Origin: a virus
Length of the DNA stretch: 64,000 nucleotides
Strand: one strand, 5' to 3'
Virus record (IMG/VR): IMGVR_UViG_3300037312_000927
In this document: positions 751 to 18,392 of the stretch, in pieces
How positions within the stretch are numbered: the stretch's first letter is position 1
How the letters are laid out: every line of letters begins with the position of its first letter
Translations under genes and position numbers: made by a program
Notes under the pieces: model-generated
Seen by the model: only the letters and a program-made list of their open reading frames with translations
Database searches by the model: none
What the model was told of the DNA's origin: nothing

Positions 751-761
751 TTTGGTATAAC
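751..761 (+). promoter_or_regulatory. early-type promoter motif (TTTGGTATAAC)
   Basis: Motif variant upstream of the Ubl gene. Confidence 0.65.
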
Positions 762-845: not shown

Positions 846-1271
846 ATGACTACCGTCGCTCAAACCGTCCTGATCGTTACCTCGACCGACTCCGAATACA
901 CCGTCCCGGGCGACATGACCGCTGCTCAGCTGGTCACCGCTTACTCGTCGCAGATCCCGGGCCTGTCGAGCATGACCTCGACCGAGCGCTATGAACAACG
1001 TGCCATCGGCCAAGTCCGCATCGTCACGTTCAGCCCCCGCACGGGCACCAAGGGTTCGACAGGTCCGGTTGCTCAGACCGTCCTGATCGTCACGTCGACG
1101 GACTCGGAATACACGGTTCCGGGCGATATGACGGCTGCCCAACTGGTGACGGCTTATTCGAGCCAGATCCCGGGCCTGTCGAGCATGACCTCGACCGAGC
1201 GTTATGAACAGCGTTCGATCGGCCAGGTCCGTATCGTCACCTTCAGCCCCCGCACGGGCACCAAAGGCTAA
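846..1271 (+). CDS. tandem di-ubiquitin-like protein (two PRTRC protein C / Prok_Ub-like units, each ending TGTKG)
   Basis: Two ~67-aa units identical except one A/S, joined by STGP; C-terminal TKG typical of PRTRC-type Ubls; AAGGA RBS; adjacent E2/JAB/E1. Confidence 0.85.
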   Translation: MTTVAQTVLIVTSTDSEYTVPGDMTAAQLVTAYSSQIPGLSSMTSTERYEQRAIGQVRIVTFSPRTGTKGSTGPVAQTVLIVTSTDSEYTVPGDMTAAQLVTAYSSQIPGLSSMTSTERYEQRSIGQVRIVTFSPRTGTKG

Positions 1272-1287
1272 TCAGCCTTAAGTAGTG

Positions 1288-1322
1288 AAACAGCCAGGTT
1301 TCAACTTGGCTGTTTTTTTTAG
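1288..1322 (+). terminator. intrinsic terminator after Ubl gene
   Basis: AAACAGCCAGG/CTTGGCTGTTT stem then T-run + AG. Confidence 0.8.
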
Positions 1323-1345
1323 TTAACGTAACTTAGGGGAACACT

Positions 1346-2251
1346 ATGCAGAAAACACGAAGAGTGAACATCCTCAGTGGACTGACTCGTATCGTGGGTG
1401 AGATCCAGGCAGGCGTGAATAAGAAGTTTCAAGACTTCTATTTGAAATGTCTGCTTCAGCTCGGTTTGGTGACAAAGACGTTTAGCTATGATTTTGTGAT
1501 AGGGAATAATGGTTCCAGCTCCCATCGTAGATCGTTGAACAAACTCACCGGTCTCATTACAAAACAACTTCTGAAACTGAACCCGGCCGCAAACTTCGTG
1601 ACAGGGTCGTTTATTGATGGTAAACCCTCTGATCAATTTAAGATCAGTATCGGTGATACGGGATGGGTAAAGGATTACCCGTCATGGCGTCATGATAAGT
1701 TCGAGAAAATGAAGGCGAAGTTTCCGGAACTGTATGGTGACGCTCAAATAAACCATTTGTCTCTCGTTCACGGAACTTCCTTCGTAGAAATGTGGGCTCG
1801 TCTGAGCGACAAGTTCGGATGGGCGTATCGTTACTGCTCGTATCTAAACTATATGCTCAGAAAGCATTCAATCCCCCTACAAGCCAGTGTAGTGATCTCA
1901 GCGGATTCTGACTCTACCACGGACGAAAACGGGGTCAGGGTGCATCTATATAAACTCAATGCAACTATCATCTTCACTACAATGCAGTGGAGATGCAGGG
2001 ATTCCGACTCGGTAGCTCGGTATCGAGAAGTGCTCAACGGTGCGGAAGATGATTCACTTTTCTCAAATGATAACCTCTGGACTTCGGTTAATTTGCCCAA
2101 CAGCATTCGCCCAGGTTCGAGCAATTTCATCTATCGGAAGTTCCACATCAGTAAGGTGTTCATGCACCTGGATAAATCCCTGAAGATTTTGGAAACCTTA
2201 CTTAGGAAGGCAGATTATGGTGTTGGAGCATATACTCTCAGAGCTGAATAA
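1346..2251 (+). CDS. hypothetical protein within Ubl cassette (301 aa)
   Basis: Long ORF with GGGGA RBS between Ubl and E2; no motif recognised. Confidence 0.7.
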   Translation: MQKTRRVNILSGLTRIVGEIQAGVNKKFQDFYLKCLLQLGLVTKTFSYDFVIGNNGSSSHRRSLNKLTGLITKQLLKLNPAANFVTGSFIDGKPSDQFKISIGDTGWVKDYPSWRHDKFEKMKAKFPELYGDAQINHLSLVHGTSFVEMWARLSDKFGWAYRYCSYLNYMLRKHSIPLQASVVISADSDSTTDENGVRVHLYKLNATIIFTTMQWRCRDSDSVARYREVLNGAEDDSLFSNDNLWTSVNLPNSIRPGSSNFIYRKFHISKVFMHLDKSLKILETLLRKADYGVGAYTLRAE

Positions 2252-2480
2252 TTCGGTTTCCATCTCGGAACCTTATGAAAAGCTGTACAATCGGCACATC
2301 GCATTGGGACCCATTGTGGACGAGGAAAGCCTCGATGACCTAATCGATTTTGCCTGTGAGGCCCTGAATTTTAAAGGGTCAGATAATCTCCCCATTGTTG
2401 ATCTGAAGCTCATTGGGGTTCAGATCAAAGTTGCAAGAACTTTCATTAACACTGATTCTGAAGAGGACTTTTTCATATGA
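2217..2480 (+). CDS. hypothetical protein within Ubl cassette (87 aa)
   Basis: Overlaps both neighbours (ATGA coupling with the E2 gene). Confidence 0.6.
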   Translation: MVLEHILSELNNSVSISEPYEKLYNRHIALGPIVDEESLDDLIDFACEALNFKGSDNLPIVDLKLIGVQIKVARTFINTDSEEDFFI

Positions 2481-3337
2481 ACGAAACCGAAACTATGGAA
2501 GCAGTTCAGCTTACCCCAATCGTCCAGGAAACTGAACCGGCAGCCGCTCCAGCAGTCCCGACTTTCGAACAAGCCGTGGAGGCTCAAGCCGGAGGTGCCT
2601 CTACGGTCGATGTTCTGAAACTGGAACTATTCAAAGACTACGCTGAAATCGACATGGGCAACAAGATCAAGAAGCAGATCTCCCATGAGACGCTACGAGA
2701 CATACTGAACAAAACCCTGAACACGGCTCAGCCCCAATCGGAAACGATTAAAGGTATGCTGATGCCGAGTAATGTGTTCTTCATGAGTCAGACGGCTAAC
2801 CGCCTCCATTTCAATACGTATTATTCCGGTGGTAAACGTAATATGTTGTACGGTGAACGCAAGATGGAAATCATGGCGCCGAACATCATCATCTCGTTTA
2901 CCCTCCGTAAGGATGGTTCGGACTGGATCATCGATTCTGAAGCTACGAAATACTTCTGTACCGATCTTCCGCTGAACAAACTGCCGAAGGACTTCATCAA
3001 CCAGATCAGTCATAAAGATGGTATCTATCTTCTTCCGATGAGTAACACCTATGACGAAGGTAAGATGTGCTACGGCAGTAACTCGATGCCTGCACGTTTT
3101 AAGGATAACAACTTCCGTGGCCTGGACTGGTATTTCCGCTATCTGTGGGAGACGCCGTTCAACAGCGATCTGGGCATTCGTGCGGTAGGTTCGATCGGAG
3201 TCAGTGATTGGTACGATCTTCTGGCTCGTACGGCTAAGGATAATAAGACCTTCCCGTACCGTGATCTGCGTGGCTGGAGAGAGATTGATGGTGCCATCCC
3301 TAGCACCTCAGAACTCGGCCGTGGCCGTGATCGCTAA
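2477..3337 (+). CDS. prokaryotic E2 family D-like protein (PRTRC protein B-like)
   Basis: LPMSNTYDEGKMCYGSN and LWETPFNSDL match the P-x-x-N-x-Y-x-x-G-x-x-C-W/Y-G ... F-N/S pattern; context with JAB and ThiF. Confidence 0.75.
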   Translation: MNETETMEAVQLTPIVQETEPAAAPAVPTFEQAVEAQAGGASTVDVLKLELFKDYAEIDMGNKIKKQISHETLRDILNKTLNTAQPQSETIKGMLMPSNVFFMSQTANRLHFNTYYSGGKRNMLYGERKMEIMAPNIIISFTLRKDGSDWIIDSEATKYFCTDLPLNKLPKDFINQISHKDGIYLLPMSNTYDEGKMCYGSNSMPARFKDNNFRGLDWYFRYLWETPFNSDLGIRAVGSIGVSDWYDLLARTAKDNKTFPYRDLRGWREIDGAIPSTSELGRGRDR

Positions 3338-3351
3338 ATAAAACGTAGTAT

Positions 3352-3362
3352 TTTGGTATAAG
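3352..3362 (+). promoter_or_regulatory. early-type promoter motif TTTGGTATAAG
   Basis: Upstream of JAB gene, followed by an 8-bp hairpin. Confidence 0.7.
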
Positions 3363-3419
3363 AGCTAGGAGATGACCTCTCCTAGTTAATTTTAGTTAAC
3401 CCTTTATTTTGGAAAAATT

Positions 3420-4745
3420 ATGCACATTTTAGCACCTTCGATGAGCTGCATCTGCTTCCCTGGCGAAGTGCAAGACGCTATGGCACAAGGTTACAAACAA
3501 ATCTACGTTGCCACGACGCAAGGCATCTTCAAACATCACATCCTTCGTGGCGAGGGTCGCTATGTCCGTGTGAAGGTCGATAAAATCCCGGGCTACGAAG
3601 AGCCGAAGATCGAAGAAGCCATGAACTTCCTGCCGGCTGGTAAGGTCCCGTACGAACTGTACGAGCAAATTCTGGCCTTCTTCAAGAAAGTCATGGAAGT
3701 GAACACCTCGGAAGTCGAGGCAATGATTCACGTGCTGTACAATCCTGAGCAAGGTTATCACCTGGGCGTTCCTCCTCAGAAAATCAGCAAGGCAAGCGTA
3801 AGCTATGACTGGAACTACGTTCCGGCTGGCACGAGTATCGTGGTTGACATTCACAGCCACAATACGATGGGAGCCTTCTTCAGCGGCACCGACAACCGTG
3901 ACGATGCCCACAACATTTCGTACTCGGGTGTCTTCGGGAAGCTGAAAGATGCGGAACCTATGACTGTGTGGCGTTTCAACTACATGGACAAGAAATACGA
4001 GGCGAAAGCGTCCGATATTTTTGATACTCCCGCACGACCGGAAGTAGAGGTTCCTAAAGAATGGCTGGACAACGTTAAAGTGGAATCGTATCAATCCCAC
4101 TATAACGGAGGTTACAGTAACCGGGGAAACGTCGGAAAGTGGCAGGGTCACTCCGTGAGTGGTCCGAGCAATACTACCCTGACGAAGAACTCGTTACCAC
4201 AGGCAAAAAACGTAAGCCAAACCGTAAACAACAACGGAAAGGTAAATGAGGCTGTTTATTATCCCGGTCAAGATGAACTCGGGCTGGAAGGAGGTGGGTT
4301 CAACAGCTGGTCTGACGACGAGCTCGAAGACTACTTTCGTAACATTGGCCGGCGCGGTGTTTCTCATGCGTATGGAGTTAACGAAGCTCGGGGTATCATT
4401 CTTCCCGACGATGTTCCCGATCCGAATACTACCGTAACGGAAGATCCGGAGGCTGACACCTTGGGAAAGTCGAAGGGGGAGGGAGTGACCCCAAACAGCA
4501 TCATCTCCACTGATCCTGCTTACCTTGCCACGGCTGTCAAGTATGGTACTGACGTTGCTGATGCCTGGTATGATATCGGCAATTTGATGTGCAACCTCGA
4601 AGGTAAAGATGAACTTCTTAGTGAACTGATCCAAGATATGTTCGGTTTGACTTCCCCTTCCGAGCAACTCAAGGTTCTGCACTTGATGTACGATAACATG
4701 GATCCGGCCAGCCGGGAGAAGTTGGAAACCCAAGGGTTTGCTTAA
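3420..4745 (+). CDS. JAB/MPN metalloprotease (PRTRC protein A-like) with long C-terminal extension
   Basis: EAM ... VDIHSHNTMGAFFSGTDNRDD = JAB E...HSH-x7-S-x2-D motif. Confidence 0.85.
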   Translation: MHILAPSMSCICFPGEVQDAMAQGYKQIYVATTQGIFKHHILRGEGRYVRVKVDKIPGYEEPKIEEAMNFLPAGKVPYELYEQILAFFKKVMEVNTSEVEAMIHVLYNPEQGYHLGVPPQKISKASVSYDWNYVPAGTSIVVDIHSHNTMGAFFSGTDNRDDAHNISYSGVFGKLKDAEPMTVWRFNYMDKKYEAKASDIFDTPARPEVEVPKEWLDNVKVESYQSHYNGGYSNRGNVGKWQGHSVSGPSNTTLTKNSLPQAKNVSQTVNNNGKVNEAVYYPGQDELGLEGGGFNSWSDDELEDYFRNIGRRGVSHAYGVNEARGIILPDDVPDPNTTVTEDPEADTLGKSKGEGVTPNSIISTDPAYLATAVKYGTDVADAWYDIGNLMCNLEGKDELLSELIQDMFGLTSPSEQLKVLHLMYDNMDPASREKLETQGFA

Positions 4746-4795
4746 TAATCAATGTGAGGCGGGGTTCCCGCCCCGCTTCATTTGAAAGGATTTAA

Positions 4796-6154
4796 ATGTT
4801 TAGCTTTACCTCTAGCATAATTCCGAATAACGTCTTCGTTATCGGTGCGGGTGGAACAGGTGGTCGCTTGATCCCCTTGCTCAGCCAGTTCATGCGAAGC
4901 ATTACTCGTGGGGTGAGCCCTATGGGTTGGCTGGAATCTCCTAGAATCTGGCTGATCGATGACGACGTTGTGGAGCAGAAGAACTTGCTTCGTCAAAACT
5001 TCATTGACCGTGACGTCGGCAAGTACAAGGCTGCAGTTCTGGCCGAACGTTACACTCGGGCTTACAACGTTCCGGTGATCCCGATCATTCGTCGTATCGA
5101 AACGGGTTCGGCCCAAGAGTTCTACAAAGATGTGAACGACAACCTGTTCGTCATGAACGGTAACATCGACACGGTGAAGTTTAACAACATCATCGGCAGC
5201 AGTGTCGTCATCATCTGCGTCGACTCGGTCGAAGCACGTCGAGATATCCTGAACGTGTTTGTCACCGGCGATCAGCCTAATAAGACTATCTTCATCGATG
5301 CTGGTAACGAAGATAGTTTCGGCCAGGTGAGTTTCTTCACCTCATCGATTCTGCTTAGCCACAAGACGACCAGTGCAGCCCAGGAAATTCCGAAGCTGTG
5401 TCCGGTGTCAGCTGACGTTGATTTCATCCCGATCGACGTGGACTACTACCGGGGCCTGGTGGACACGCCGGCTCAAGGTAGCTGTGCGGATCTGAATCAA
5501 ACCCTGGCGATCAATGCTATCATGGCAACGACGATTATGGGCGTGGTGCAGAACTGCTTCTACCGTAAGCCTATGACCTATAACAAGGTCAGTATCAGTC
5601 TGGACGGGGGTAATCACACGACGTACAACACGTTCAACAATCTCAACAATGCCGGCATCTCTAAAGAGACCTGGCATAATGGGCGTAACGGGAGTCTGTA
5701 TTCCGAAGAACGTGAAGGTCGTCGGAAGTGTCTGGGGTTCGTCGGTCGAGCTCAGACACACGAGGCACGTGATCTGCGACAGACTCTTCTGGATAAGATG
5801 GAAGAGATCAATCGTCAGGCTGAACTGGCACGCCGTAAGGCTGCTGAGGAAGCTGAACGGGCAGCAGAGCAAGCTCGTATCAAGATCGTTGCCGATCGTA
5901 AGCGTGAAGAGATCCGTCGTATGGTAGAGGCGGCTCGTCAAGCACGGGAGACTCCGGTTGCCCCGACCTTGGCTGATGCAGTAGCGGTTGTGGCTAGTGC
6001 GGCAAGTGTTGTTGAGGTCCCGGCAGCTCCTCCTCCGCTGACTCCGGTTCGTCAACGTACCCGCCGAGTTGTAGAACTTGCTTTACCTCCCGCTGATGCA
6101 TATGTGGAGGGTGACGAGGACGACAACGAAGTGGATGAAGACGATCCTTATTAA
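4796..6154 (+). CDS. ThiF/E1-like activating enzyme (PRTRC ThiF-like) with coiled-coil/acidic tail
   Basis: IGAGGTGG, DDDVVEQKNLLRQNF, CVDS, DAGN, candidate catalytic Cys in QGSCADL, QTLAIN. Confidence 0.9.
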   Translation: MFSFTSSIIPNNVFVIGAGGTGGRLIPLLSQFMRSITRGVSPMGWLESPRIWLIDDDVVEQKNLLRQNFIDRDVGKYKAAVLAERYTRAYNVPVIPIIRRIETGSAQEFYKDVNDNLFVMNGNIDTVKFNNIIGSSVVIICVDSVEARRDILNVFVTGDQPNKTIFIDAGNEDSFGQVSFFTSSILLSHKTTSAAQEIPKLCPVSADVDFIPIDVDYYRGLVDTPAQGSCADLNQTLAINAIMATTIMGVVQNCFYRKPMTYNKVSISLDGGNHTTYNTFNNLNNAGISKETWHNGRNGSLYSEEREGRRKCLGFVGRAQTHEARDLRQTLLDKMEEINRQAELARRKAAEEAERAAEQARIKIVADRKREEIRRMVEAARQARETPVAPTLADAVAVVASAASVVEVPAAPPPLTPVRQRTRRVVELALPPADAYVEGDEDDNEVDEDDPY

Positions 6155-6156
6155 TG

Positions 6157-6191
6157 AAAAACCCAGGTTTCTATGCCTGGGTTTTTTTTAG
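6157..6191 (+). terminator. intrinsic (probably bidirectional) terminator
   Basis: AAAAACCCAGG/CCTGGGTTTTT stem between convergent genes. Confidence 0.8.
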
Positions 6192-6193
6192 CT

Positions 6194-6601: not shown

Positions 6602-7131
6602 AACTCGTCCATGTATTTGACGTATATTTCAATAGCCTTACGCTTATCATCTGTTTCTTGAGGAGTTTGACCCGGGACTAATGCATTAGCTGGCACAAAC
6701 GTAAAGGGATATACTGGCTCTGAATAACCTTCTTCTCTAAGTAGATAGGTTACGACCTCTACGATATCACTATTAGGTTCATTGAAACTACCTTTAGGCA
6801 CTTCCAAATTCTTAGACTCTTCAATGGCATAGGCCAATTCAAGGCTAGTAGGCAGTGGCAGGAACTCAAAGTCAGCGACCTTGTTATTCATTACATCTAC
6901 TGCGTGAAGAAAGAATGCCATATCACTATACAGAAGTTCAGGATCCTTTTCGATAGCCTGCAGCAAAGAGATCTTGTCACGGGTTAGTTCATCTAGAACG
7001 AGGCCTAACTCCAGGCTGATAGTTTCAAGTTCCCAATCCTTCCACATACCCGGCCCGAAGAGGCGATCAAGATTTCCCTTAATGTGGTGCAGGGGCGCAA
7101 GCCCCATGCTGTTATCTGAATCTTTAAACAT
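6598..7131 (-). CDS. hypothetical protein (177 aa)
   Basis: Translationally coupled in minus-strand operon. Confidence 0.65.
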   Translation of the reverse strand: MFKDSDNSMGLAPLHHIKGNLDRLFGPGMWKDWELETISLELGLVLDELTRDKISLLQAIEKDPELLYSDMAFFLHAVDVMNNKVADFEFLPLPTSLELAYAIEESKNLEVPKGSFNEPNSDIVEVVTYLLREEGYSEPVYPFTFVPANALVPGQTPQETDDKRKAIEIYVKYMDEL

Positions 7132-8032
7132 TTCTCACCAGGTTGGAAAGTACATGTTGCATGTCCAACGGGAGGGTCTCTACAACATTCTTGAAGTTCA
7201 TCGGCCCACTGTCCATCTCCTTAGCGATATCCGATCCTAGATAGCTAGCAATTTTGCTACGGCCAACACGTTCTAGGTTCTCGTAAGGAATTTGTTTACC
7301 TGCGACCTTAACCATCAAACTGCTCTTGTAAGCGGCTTCTTTAGTATGGAAAACTTCACGGTGGAAGTTATGACCTTTGAAATGTAGACCTGCTTGTTTA
7401 TCGAGTTGAGCAACAGTATCTGCCAGGAAACTTTGAAGATCCGAGGTCATATCGGAGTTGGCGTATTTTCGACCTATAACCGATGCGATCTTTACGAAGC
7501 TGTCGTCTTTTGTTTCATGATAACGTACTGCCAGAGATTTAACCGCAGCTTCTTTATCCAGATAGGCGTTACCACTATACAGTGTAACTTCTTCAGCTGG
7601 TTCAAGACCTTTTTCTTTAGCTTCCTTATAAAGTTCTTTGGCCTTAAGACTACGGTCAACAATAGTCATATCCCCATAAGATCCGCAAAAACTTGACTCT
7701 TTCAAGAGATAAGATTCAACAGAAGAGTTACTACGATTCATCTCCAGTTGAGATGCAGCTTTAATCATAGCTTCTGAAAGTTGTTCAACTTCGAACTTAA
7801 CCCCGTAGGCTTCGACAGCAGCGGCAACCTTTTCAATCTCAAATACATCTACAGGGCTATACGCCACTTTCTCGAAGTACTTAAGCTGAAGAGCCGTAGC
7901 GATGGTGCTGTCTCGGCTGTCCAAAGGCATTTCTTTGTCTACGCTTGCTTCTTTCACCAGAGGTAGGGCTTCTGGAACATATTCCAGGATTTGTTTTAAA
8001 GTATGTGCTAGCATTGTCATATTAACCACCAA
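7124..8032 (-). CDS. hypothetical, probable head-associated protein with K-x-A sites
   Basis: VKEA, EKVA, IKAA, VKIA, DKQA, TKEA motifs as in head-module proteins. Confidence 0.6.
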   Translation of the reverse strand: MVVNMTMLAHTLKQILEYVPEALPLVKEASVDKEMPLDSRDSTIATALQLKYFEKVAYSPVDVFEIEKVAAAVEAYGVKFEVEQLSEAMIKAASQLEMNRSNSSVESYLLKESSFCGSYGDMTIVDRSLKAKELYKEAKEKGLEPAEEVTLYSGNAYLDKEAAVKSLAVRYHETKDDSFVKIASVIGRKYANSDMTSDLQSFLADTVAQLDKQAGLHFKGHNFHREVFHTKEAAYKSSLMVKVAGKQIPYENLERVGRSKIASYLGSDIAKEMDSGPMNFKNVVETLPLDMQHVLSNLVRNV

Positions 8033-18308: not shown

Positions 18309-18392
18309 TGTAATTCCTTTGTTAATTATTCGTTGTTACGATGTAGGTATTTTAATCAAATTAAAGCCCCGGTTTCCCAGGGCCTTGCTAGA

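Follow-up and report, generated by a model that had tools for sequence, protein, structure and literature searches.

A predicted ubiquitin-like conjugation cassette with a tandem tag gene in a large phage, related to the PRTRC genes of plasmids

The phage genome recorded in IMG/VR as IMGVR_UViG_3300037312_000927 (184,920 bp, rated complete by CheckV) was analysed over a window of 64,000 nucleotides, which is the minus strand of positions 22566-86565 of the record. Six co-oriented open reading frames (ORFs) occupy positions 846-6154 (+) of this window and encode a ubiquitin-like protein (Ubl), two proteins here called orf301 and orf87, an E2-like protein, a JAB metallopeptidase and an E1-like adenylyltransferase. 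The reading that we favour is that these genes form a working phage-encoded ubiquitin-like conjugation system, on a divergent branch of the ParB-related, ThiF-related (PRTRC) cassettes, that makes its tag in excess and is likely to direct it at host proteins; taken whole, this reading stands about evenly between right and wrong. Its parts differ in strength: the family assignments and conserved residues make a functional conjugation machinery highly probable, the regulatory motifs make expression early in infection somewhat probable, and host-directed targets, for takeover or counter-defence, are a tentative choice to which we give slightly less than an even chance. The gene set, protein families, residues, synteny, precursor and regulatory elements are observations, from which we infer the enzymatic steps, the timing and the targets. 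A preliminary description had seen a cassette of four genes in a jumbo phage; the Ubl, E2, JAB and E1 genes are indeed all present, whereas four is too few, as orf301 and orf87 lie between the Ubl and E2 genes, and the genome falls just short of the usual 200-kb line for jumbo phages. The features of the locus are as follows.

751..760, +: class I promoter-like motif TTTGGTATAA, 86 nt upstream of the Ubl gene (motif count)
846..1271, +: tandem di-Ubl precursor gene, 141 aa (ORF; TRF repeat)
846-1055, +: Ubl unit 1, ending TGTKG
1056-1268, +: Ubl unit 2, ending TGTKG, with the stop codon next
1287..1316, +: intrinsic-terminator hairpin, 13 bp plus U-run, directly after the Ubl gene (folding, z -3.96)
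1346..2251, +: orf301, fast-evolving conserved accessory protein, 301 aa, in the position of PRTRC protein F (synteny)
2217..2480, +: orf87, small conserved protein, 87 aa, overlapping both neighbours (synteny)
2477..3337, +: E2-like protein (Prok-E2_D), candidate catalytic Cys198 (Pfam, alignment)
3352..3361, +: second class I promoter-like copy, upstream of JAB and E1 (motif count)
3363-3387, +: hairpin after the second class I copy (folding)
3420..4745, +: JAB/JAMM metallopeptidase with N-terminal extension and long C-terminal region (Prok-JAB, PRTRC_A)
4796..6154, +: E1-like adenylyltransferase (ThiF family), candidate catalytic Cys230, variable charged C-terminal tail (ThiF, alignment)
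6156..6187, +: terminator hairpin closing the cassette (folding)

The conjugation genes and their relatives

Alignments of 8 or 9 phage sequences per enzyme (the window included) indicate that the invariant residues of E1, E2 and JAB are those expected for catalysis. The E2-like protein, which does contain the GKMCYGSN motif noted earlier, passes the cut-off of Pfam Prok-E2_D (PF14460; 27.1 bits against 25, over model positions 88-169 only), and 8 of 9 E2 relatives match the same model, the best with E 5e-9. Its C198 is the sole invariant cysteine, within G-x-M-C-x-G-x-N, and an invariant N190 lies 8 residues before it, the same spacing as that between HPN and Cys in UBC enzymes. The JAB protein, with the HSH..S..D motif in place, passes the cut-off of Prok-JAB (PF14464; 34.7 bits against 25), and its invariant residues E100, H145, H147, S155 and D158 constitute a full JAMM motif. 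The E1-like protein bears the reported GAGGTGG, RQNF and SCA motifs and passes the cut-off of ThiF (PF00899; 45.2 bits against 28.1); invariant among relatives are GxGGTGxR, D55, NLxRQNF, K78, CVD143, DxGNE and SCADL. The crossover-loop cysteine of MoeB/ThiF stands directly before a helix, and C230 of the phage E1 is placed likewise, a position that points to a catalytic role. The E1 family profile matches structures of ThiF, MccB, UBA3 and Uba1, while single-sequence searches of the PDB with E1, E2 and JAB and profile searches of the PDB with E2 and JAB returned nothing meaningful.

Two features of the JAB-E1 part vary among relatives. In the group of related loci numbered L008-L016, two extra small ORFs (L011:11909-12202 and L011:12322-12531), both absent from the window, lie between JAB and E1; one is a 69-aa zinc-ribbon-like protein (CxxC...CxxC), and the pair might serve the cassette as an optional accessory factor. 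Within the JAB C-terminal region (window 4591-4716), a 124-nt segment is diverged at equal length in a 90-95% identical relative represented in RNA libraries, with flanks alike, a local hypervariable patch by this comparison.

The PRTRC cassette of plasmids and integrative and conjugative elements is operon class 6d of Iyer, Burroughs and Aravind 2006 (PMC1779556), and the preliminary description had matched the phage genes to it. Among the NCBIfam PRTRC models (TIGR03734-03742), PRTRC_B is the best match of the E2, PRTRC_A that of the JAB (E 1.3e-18) and PRTRC_ThiF that of the E1 (E 2.9e-23). Profile alignment (hhalign) relates the JAB to PRTRC_A (probability 97.6, E 3e-12), aligns the Cys motifs of the E2 and PRTRC_B (E 3e-3), and places the TF..G.KG tail of the Ubl on the G-A-K-G of PRTRC_C (E 9e-5, probability 59), the Ubl itself having no NCBIfam match; plasmid PRTRC_C continues for eight more residues beyond the G-A-K-G tail. 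The conjugative plasmid NZ_CP033971 of Cupriavidus pauculus has the order ParB, E, C (a 77-aa Ubl), F (379 aa), B (E2), A (JAB) and ThiF, and the phage order Ubl-orf301(-orf87)-E2-JAB-E1 corresponds to its C-F-B-A-ThiF. PRTRC E and D models have no match in the cassette, and ParB, earlier reported missing from the window, is missing from the whole 184.9-kb genome by ParB_N (PF02195). The PRTRC match thus stands for gene order and for the profiles of A, B and ThiF, and more tentatively for that of C; full identity does not stand, the phage cassette being ParB-less, divergent and below the equivalog cut-offs. On gene order and profile matches together, the cassette is best described as a relative of the PRTRC cassette of plasmids, divergent and lacking ParB.

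In all 17 related loci the cassette genes keep their synteny over whatever part the locus covers, with protein identities of 23-53%. The carriers are phages of Salmonella, Vibrio and soil hosts, and this conservation is consistent with a core function of the lineage. DNA runs with sequence of the window phage are soil and rhizosphere metagenomes. The large RNA polymerase beta-like protein of this phage shares 51-54% identity with its counterparts in Salmonella phage Arash (180.8-kb genome) and in the Vibrio phages D69, D181 and D148 (genomes of about 187 kb), which also supply the best E1 matches. Lysogeny genes, such as those for an integrase or a repressor, did not surface in the family searches run on the phage, and none is reported by the Arash paper for its phage. 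A megablast search of 50,697 phage records with the cassette found no match, and PHROGs matched neither any cassette protein nor the five genes downstream.

Outside the syntenic loci, the next-best E1 relatives (27-33% identity) belong to Bacillus phages KLEB27-3, WH1 and Edson and to NZ_CP071971, all jumbo-phage-sized Bacillus replicons. The last of these (locus L027), a 215.9-kb non-mobilizable 'plasmid' of Bacillus amyloliquefaciens, was rejected as a cassette carrier, the neighbours of its ThiF gene including no Ubl, E2 or JAB recognisable by Pfam. In Vibrio phage D69 (OZ195729; L003:6971-7945), E1 homology is found from locus position 7001 and takes in the Gly-rich ATP loop; the deposited coding sequence begins at 7190 and a 29-aa reverse ORF is annotated across the remainder, so the E1 start has probably been annotated too far downstream.

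Both genes between the tag and the E2 are present in every related locus extending that far, and both evolve fast. Identity of orf301 among relatives is just 17-24%, with conservation limited to the first third of the protein, an R-Y motif in its centre and a helix at its C-terminus, few invariant residues, and a variable middle that is missing in two relatives. It has no match in Pfam, NCBIfam, PHROG or PADLOC, no usable match in the ESM Atlas, no similarity to PRTRC_F by hhalign (probability 0.1), and only 8 homologues among 5.8 billion proteins. An AlphaFold2 (AF2) model of mixed alpha/beta structure has a mean predicted local distance difference test (pLDDT) of 64.8, and Foldseek and VIA-wide searches with it returned no credible fold. 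The conserved frame, the variable centre and the position of the gene beside E2 would fit a specificity factor, which is a guess. Counterparts of orf87 (81-95 aa, same position) were found in L004, L017, L018, Arash, D69 and L030.

The tandem tag gene

The tag gene had been described as encoding a Ubl that ends in TKG. The ORF at 846-1271 does end in TKG followed by the stop codon; the protein is not a single Ubl, consisting instead of two complete units head to tail (TRF period 213 nt, 1.9 copies, 87% nucleotide identity between units). Over 67 aligned codons the two units differ synonymously at 23 and by 1 amino acid inside the domain, giving dN 0.024, dS 0.67 and dN/dS 0.036 by the method NG86 (nonsynonymous and synonymous substitutions per site). 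In L011 the two units encode identical protein over the 67 codons compared, with dS 1.33. Both units are evidently under strong selection, since the protein stays near-identical despite high dS in either phage. The Ubl orthologues of the window phage and L011 are just 43% identical, so their unit pairs are independent duplications or copies kept identical by selection; gene conversion is an unlikely source of the identity, synonymous sites being close to saturated. Selection against recombination between the repeats is a possible extra factor.

Searches also found 51 shorter Ubl homologues of 64-74 aa, of which 25 were aligned, and every one of these ends exactly at ...F-S/K-P-R-T-G-T-K-G. The Ubl unit contains no cysteine and only one lysine (K69, in the tail). 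Trypsin would cut after K69 and leave a single Gly on a target, which makes the KG-remnant peptides proposed earlier for mass spectrometry the wrong signature for this protease. The AF2 model of the Ubl, built from the 25-sequence alignment, is confident (pLDDT 91.5), with the bb-a-bb order of a beta-grasp fold and a free C-terminal tail. A VIA structural search of the PDB returned the TINCR Ubl (Z 5.1), MoaD (5.0 and 4.9) and Fubi (4.7), followed by ubiquitin, FAT10, SUMO, ISG15 and Urm1; nearly all of the best 50 matches are Ub, SUMO, MoaD or Urm1-type chains, at Z of only 3.8-5.1. Foldseek with the same model gave weak rows only. The beta-grasp fold predicted in the preliminary description is thus supported by a confident model and by Ub/MoaD-type matches, short of proven, the Z-scores being middling as expected for 70 residues. 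Pfam Prok_Ub (PF14454) weakly matches 5 of the 25 relatives (best E 1.4e-3) and neither unit of the window, and a Ubl-tail motif scan of 185,579 prokaryote genomes found no relative.

The number of units varies across the lineage. There is one in Arash, L004, L007-L010, L017 and L018; there are two in the window phage and L011-L016, three in Vibrio phage D69, with linkers and a five-residue cap, and five in L030, a 172-kb viral contig with the same cassette downstream. A Ubl profile search of 1.84 billion representative proteins gave 135 clusters, about 40 with at least 2 matched stretches and about 11 with five. One multi-unit protein consists of five perfect repeats ending AGTKG with one cap residue behind them; another comprises five RTGTKG units with linkers and is likewise capped by one residue. 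Every unit of the multi-unit proteins keeps the complete tail, and the units are therefore best regarded as releasable modifiers, unlike the multi-domain Ubls of the Bub and Bil systems. Precursors of 2, 3 or 5 units with linkers and caps, as these sequences appear to be, demand endoproteolytic release after Gly, and the multi-unit tag would be a ready substrate for the JAB peptidase.

Three further observations concern tag genes elsewhere. The actual Ubl of Arash is a 66-aa ORF ending RRTGTKG (L002:107-307; OQ632216, complement 180513-180713); GenBank has gp251c on this stretch, 72 aa in a different frame and without Ubl features, so the tag gene of a culturable phage is missing from public annotation. 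P0120 (199 aa) is a single Ubl ending PRTGTKG followed by 134 further, helical-looking residues, and looks like a Ubl fusion precursor by analogy with ubiquitin-ribosomal protein fusions. L028 and L029, found with the five-unit protein P0089, were rejected as Ubl loci, the match being a weak one inside a 528-aa ORF.

Expression, context and targets

The motif TTTGGTATAA, often extended to ...GTATAGTA, has 17 exact copies in the 64 kb, 14 of them on the + strand and most in gaps that precede small ORFs; allowing up to one mismatch, the copies number 28 against 6.2 expected. It resembles an extended -10 element (TGnTATAAT). Copies stand at 403, at 751 (Ubl) and at 3352 (JAB-E1), and the two promoters proposed earlier at 751 and 3352 are thus both instances of a recurrent motif. 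A second motif, TTAAAATA, occurs 12 times on the minus strand of the window (for example at 18355, 21149, 39430, 42753, 56251 and 62478) and not once on the plus strand; most copies precede operons of large genes, with RNA polymerase subunit-like and head protease-like genes among these. TTGGTATAA has 15 copies on the plus strand and 4 on the minus. This distribution suggests that the phage, which encodes RNA polymerase subunit-like proteins, has promoters of two temporal classes. The cassette belongs to the small-gene class, as it carries TTTGGTATAA and the large minus-strand operons carry TTAAAATA, and the small-gene class is probably early.

A terminator right after the Ubl gene had also been proposed, with excess of Ubl over the enzymes as its consequence, and both proposals gain from the present results. 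A hairpin with U-run after the Ubl gene, 13 bp long and at 1287-1316 in the window, occurs in all 7 loci that were folded: those of the window phage and of Arash, and five further related ones. G+C content at third codon positions (GC3) is 0.77 in the Ubl gene and 0.57 in the E1 gene, with a whole-window GC of 0.44; among five relatives checked, the Ubl gene is richer in G+C than its own locus in all five and GC3 is clearly raised in three. The conserved terminator, the multiplied units and the high GC3 fit a design that makes much more tag than enzyme. orf301 starts 30 nt past the terminator without a promoter-like motif of its own, so expression of orf301, orf87 and E2 would depend on read-through. 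Behind the terminator U-runs of the window stands a conserved tail, TAGTTA or TAGC-like (TTTTTTTAGTTA; 1308-1322, 3388-3400 and 6180-6192), found likewise in L002, L004, L007, L011 and L017, which may be a lineage-specific terminator or processing signal.

Signs of expression come from two sources. In GenBank, the E1 and E2 homologues of Arash carry the label 'structural protein', assigned, according to the Arash paper, from mass spectrometry of a virion preparation; if the label rests on mass spectrometry here, both homologues are translated. The preparation contained 116 of about 270 proteins, and these include ribonucleotide reductases and kinases, so the list is taken as evidence of translation only, not of virion location. 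In root RNA-seq libraries from four runs of one study, a relative with 90-95% identity is represented by contigs that span the two Ubl units, JAB and E1; the stretch from about 1740 to 3093 (orf301 to E2) has no contig of >=90% likeness, which divergence or assembly may explain. This relative has a 9-nt deletion exactly at the unit junction, showing that the tandem persists in a diverged strain.

Under the favoured reading, the tag would be translated as a two-unit precursor, and JAB would cut after each TGTKG, freeing unit 1, with unit 2 already ending at Gly; JAB may also strip conjugates. E1 would adenylate the C-terminal Gly of the tag, take the tag on Cys230 and hand it to Cys198 of E2, from which it would be attached to lysines of target proteins, with orf301 and orf87 probably acting as a specificity or adaptor component. 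An own promoter, the terminator behind, the duplicated gene and GC3-rich codons would together keep the tag in excess of the enzymes. Host proteins are put forward as more likely targets than virion parts. A bolder and rather doubtful extension is that throughout the Arash-like lineage, in phages of Salmonella, Vibrio and soil bacteria, such a system, fed by poly-Ubl, tags host proteins during infection with orf301 as a new E3-like substrate selector.

Several points weigh against the favoured reading. PRTRC scores are far below the equivalog cut-offs (ThiF 82.4 against 144.75 bits, A 67.2 against 101.8, B 16.7 against 131.45), and the E2 match is confined to the C-terminal half of the Pfam model. 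The argument from promoter classes assumes that the class I motif means early. With orf301 assignable to neither a fold nor a family, the role proposed for it is a guess, and the RNA-library contigs fall short of proof of transcription. The cassette has large genes of the opposite strand to either side, with the downstream block annotated in part as structural in Arash, and Arash cassette proteins occur in the virion preparation; both observations favour a morphogenetic role.

The last two points belong to the strongest of the alternatives, in which the same enzymology would place the tag on the phage's own tail, baseplate or head proteins, or use it to chaperone their assembly, as an extended form of the lambda TAPI/TAPK system. 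The plus-strand block of small genes begins about 830 nt before the window start, at another TTTGGTATAA copy, and has large opposite-strand genes on both sides. On the downstream side the cassette borders in every case on d135 and d177, convergent genes that are syntenic in every relative, and in Arash this block continues into proteins annotated structural and a PAAR spike. The Arash virion mass-spectrometry table includes gene numbers in the cassette range, and Ubl plus JAB genes are found in phage tail-assembly clusters (Iyer 2006, PMC1779556). Against this, the breadth of the Arash list makes it weak evidence, the cassette is transcribed opposite to the flanking large-gene blocks, and it carries the small-gene motif, not the TTAAAATA of the large operons. 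The constant location beside virion genes and the promoter class shared with small genes are both real and point different ways; a role in virion assembly or modification has perhaps one chance in a handful, well behind host-directed tagging.

Less probable again, though still worth naming, is a phage-carried exclusion or defence system that would tag proteins of competing phages or plasmids in the manner of Bil and so shield the infected cell. The characterised bacterial E1/E2/JAB systems (Bil and type II CBASS) are antiviral and PRTRC travels on mobile elements, as this would have it. However, PADLOC matched none of five of the six proteins, and only a 37-residue Arg-finger segment of E1 fell weakly on E1-E2 models (E 2.5e-4 to 7e-3), PADLOC 2023 being a release that may lack Bil models; the position is fixed across a deep phage lineage, unlike that of variable defence islands; and neither the family searches nor, for Arash, the published account brought up a lysogeny gene. 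The small genes upstream of the cassette in D69 and L004 have no counterparts in the window and are not conserved between relatives, so that nothing about the window phage follows from the RecBCD-inhibitor neighbour of D69.

It is improbable to a further degree that the Ubl acts only as a sulfur carrier, thiocarboxylated by E1 after the fashion of ThiS and MoaD for cofactor or nucleoside modification. The E1 is of simple ThiF/MoeB type and MoaD is among the best structural matches of the Ubl, but such a pathway does not account for a conserved E2 with an invariant Cys, a JAB peptidase, or multi-unit precursors with linkers and caps, and the family searches flagged neither a rhodanese on E1 nor a sulfur-donor enzyme in the cassette. 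Finally, a decaying remnant of an acquired PRTRC cassette would suit the low PRTRC scores and is scarcely credible given six of six frames open, catalytic residues invariant among relatives, the low dN/dS between units and conservation in phages of such different hosts: by these measures the cassette is real, intact and under selection.

Comparison with known systems

Class 6d comprises a Ubl, an uncharacterised protein, an E2 bearing a Cys, a JAB that has an N-terminal domain and a rhodanese-free E1, and its description includes a protein that is mainly alpha-helical and has conserved polar residues (PMC1779556). The phage cassette resembles it in having a small Ubl whose C-terminal Gly is conserved, an E2 whose Cys is conserved, a JAB next to it that has an N-terminal domain, and an E1 in which the family searches flagged no rhodanese. 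It differs in that the middle protein of the phage is outside the alpha-hel2 (PF14456) family, on which PRTRC_F scores 315 bits, in the extra 87-aa gene, in JAB and E1 proteins about twice as long, in the head-to-tail multiplication of the Ubl, and in being carried by a large phage instead of a plasmid. A literature search found no functional study of PRTRC or class 6d, and none on a phage E1/E2/JAB/Ubl cassette or on phage poly-Ubl; beyond the preliminary description, the present analysis adds the series of poly-Ubl precursors, the recoding of the units at synonymous sites, the conservation of the post-Ubl terminator and the distinction of two classes of promoter.

The Bil (BilABCD), type II CBASS (Cap2/Cap3) and Bub (class 6e) systems share with the cassette the logic of E1 adenylation, an E2 intermediate, a peptidase (JAB-type or other) and a Ubl or Ubl-like C-terminus. 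These are host antiphage systems, whereas the cassette described here is carried by a phage. Bub further differs in its multi-domain Ubls, which are not sets of identical releasable units, and in its oxyester chemistry, in contrast to the invariant Cys on both E1 and E2 of the phage. To our knowledge, every characterised bacterial E1/E2/Ubl pathway (type II CBASS, Bil, Bub) is host-side and acts against phages, while the same type of machinery is here a conserved, lineage-wide gene set of large phages. On the bolder, lineage-wide extension given above, host proteins would be tagged, for example to disable defence or to redirect host proteolysis, and this would be the first virus-side protein-conjugation system in the arms race of phages and bacteria. 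Two carriers, Salmonella phage Arash and Vibrio phage D69, are in culture, which makes the targets of phage tagging experimentally accessible.

Among phages, lambda and T1 encode TAPI (a Ubl) and TAPK (JAB plus NlpC/P60), and thus likewise a Ubl with a C-terminal Gly adjoining a JAB, in the vicinity of tail genes (Iyer 2006). The lambda system has neither E1 nor E2, TAPI has a C-terminal domain beyond its Gly-rich linker, and no sequence similarity to the cassette was detected.

A parallel to the tag gene itself is eukaryotic. Polyubiquitin genes are head-to-tail repeats, each with the mature C-terminal Gly, and the phage Ubl genes have the same layout; unit number varies among phage relatives (1, 2, 3 or 5), some of them have one or a few cap residues past the last unit, and the units keep their protein identity in spite of synonymous divergence. 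The differences are that no sequence relationship is detectable beyond the beta-grasp fold, that the phage tail is TGTKG and not LRGG, that the presumed processing enzyme is the JAMM peptidase of the same cassette, and that some phage relatives have linkers between units. By this analogy, a tag of one to five units with cap residues is read as an independent reinvention of the polyubiquitin gene design.

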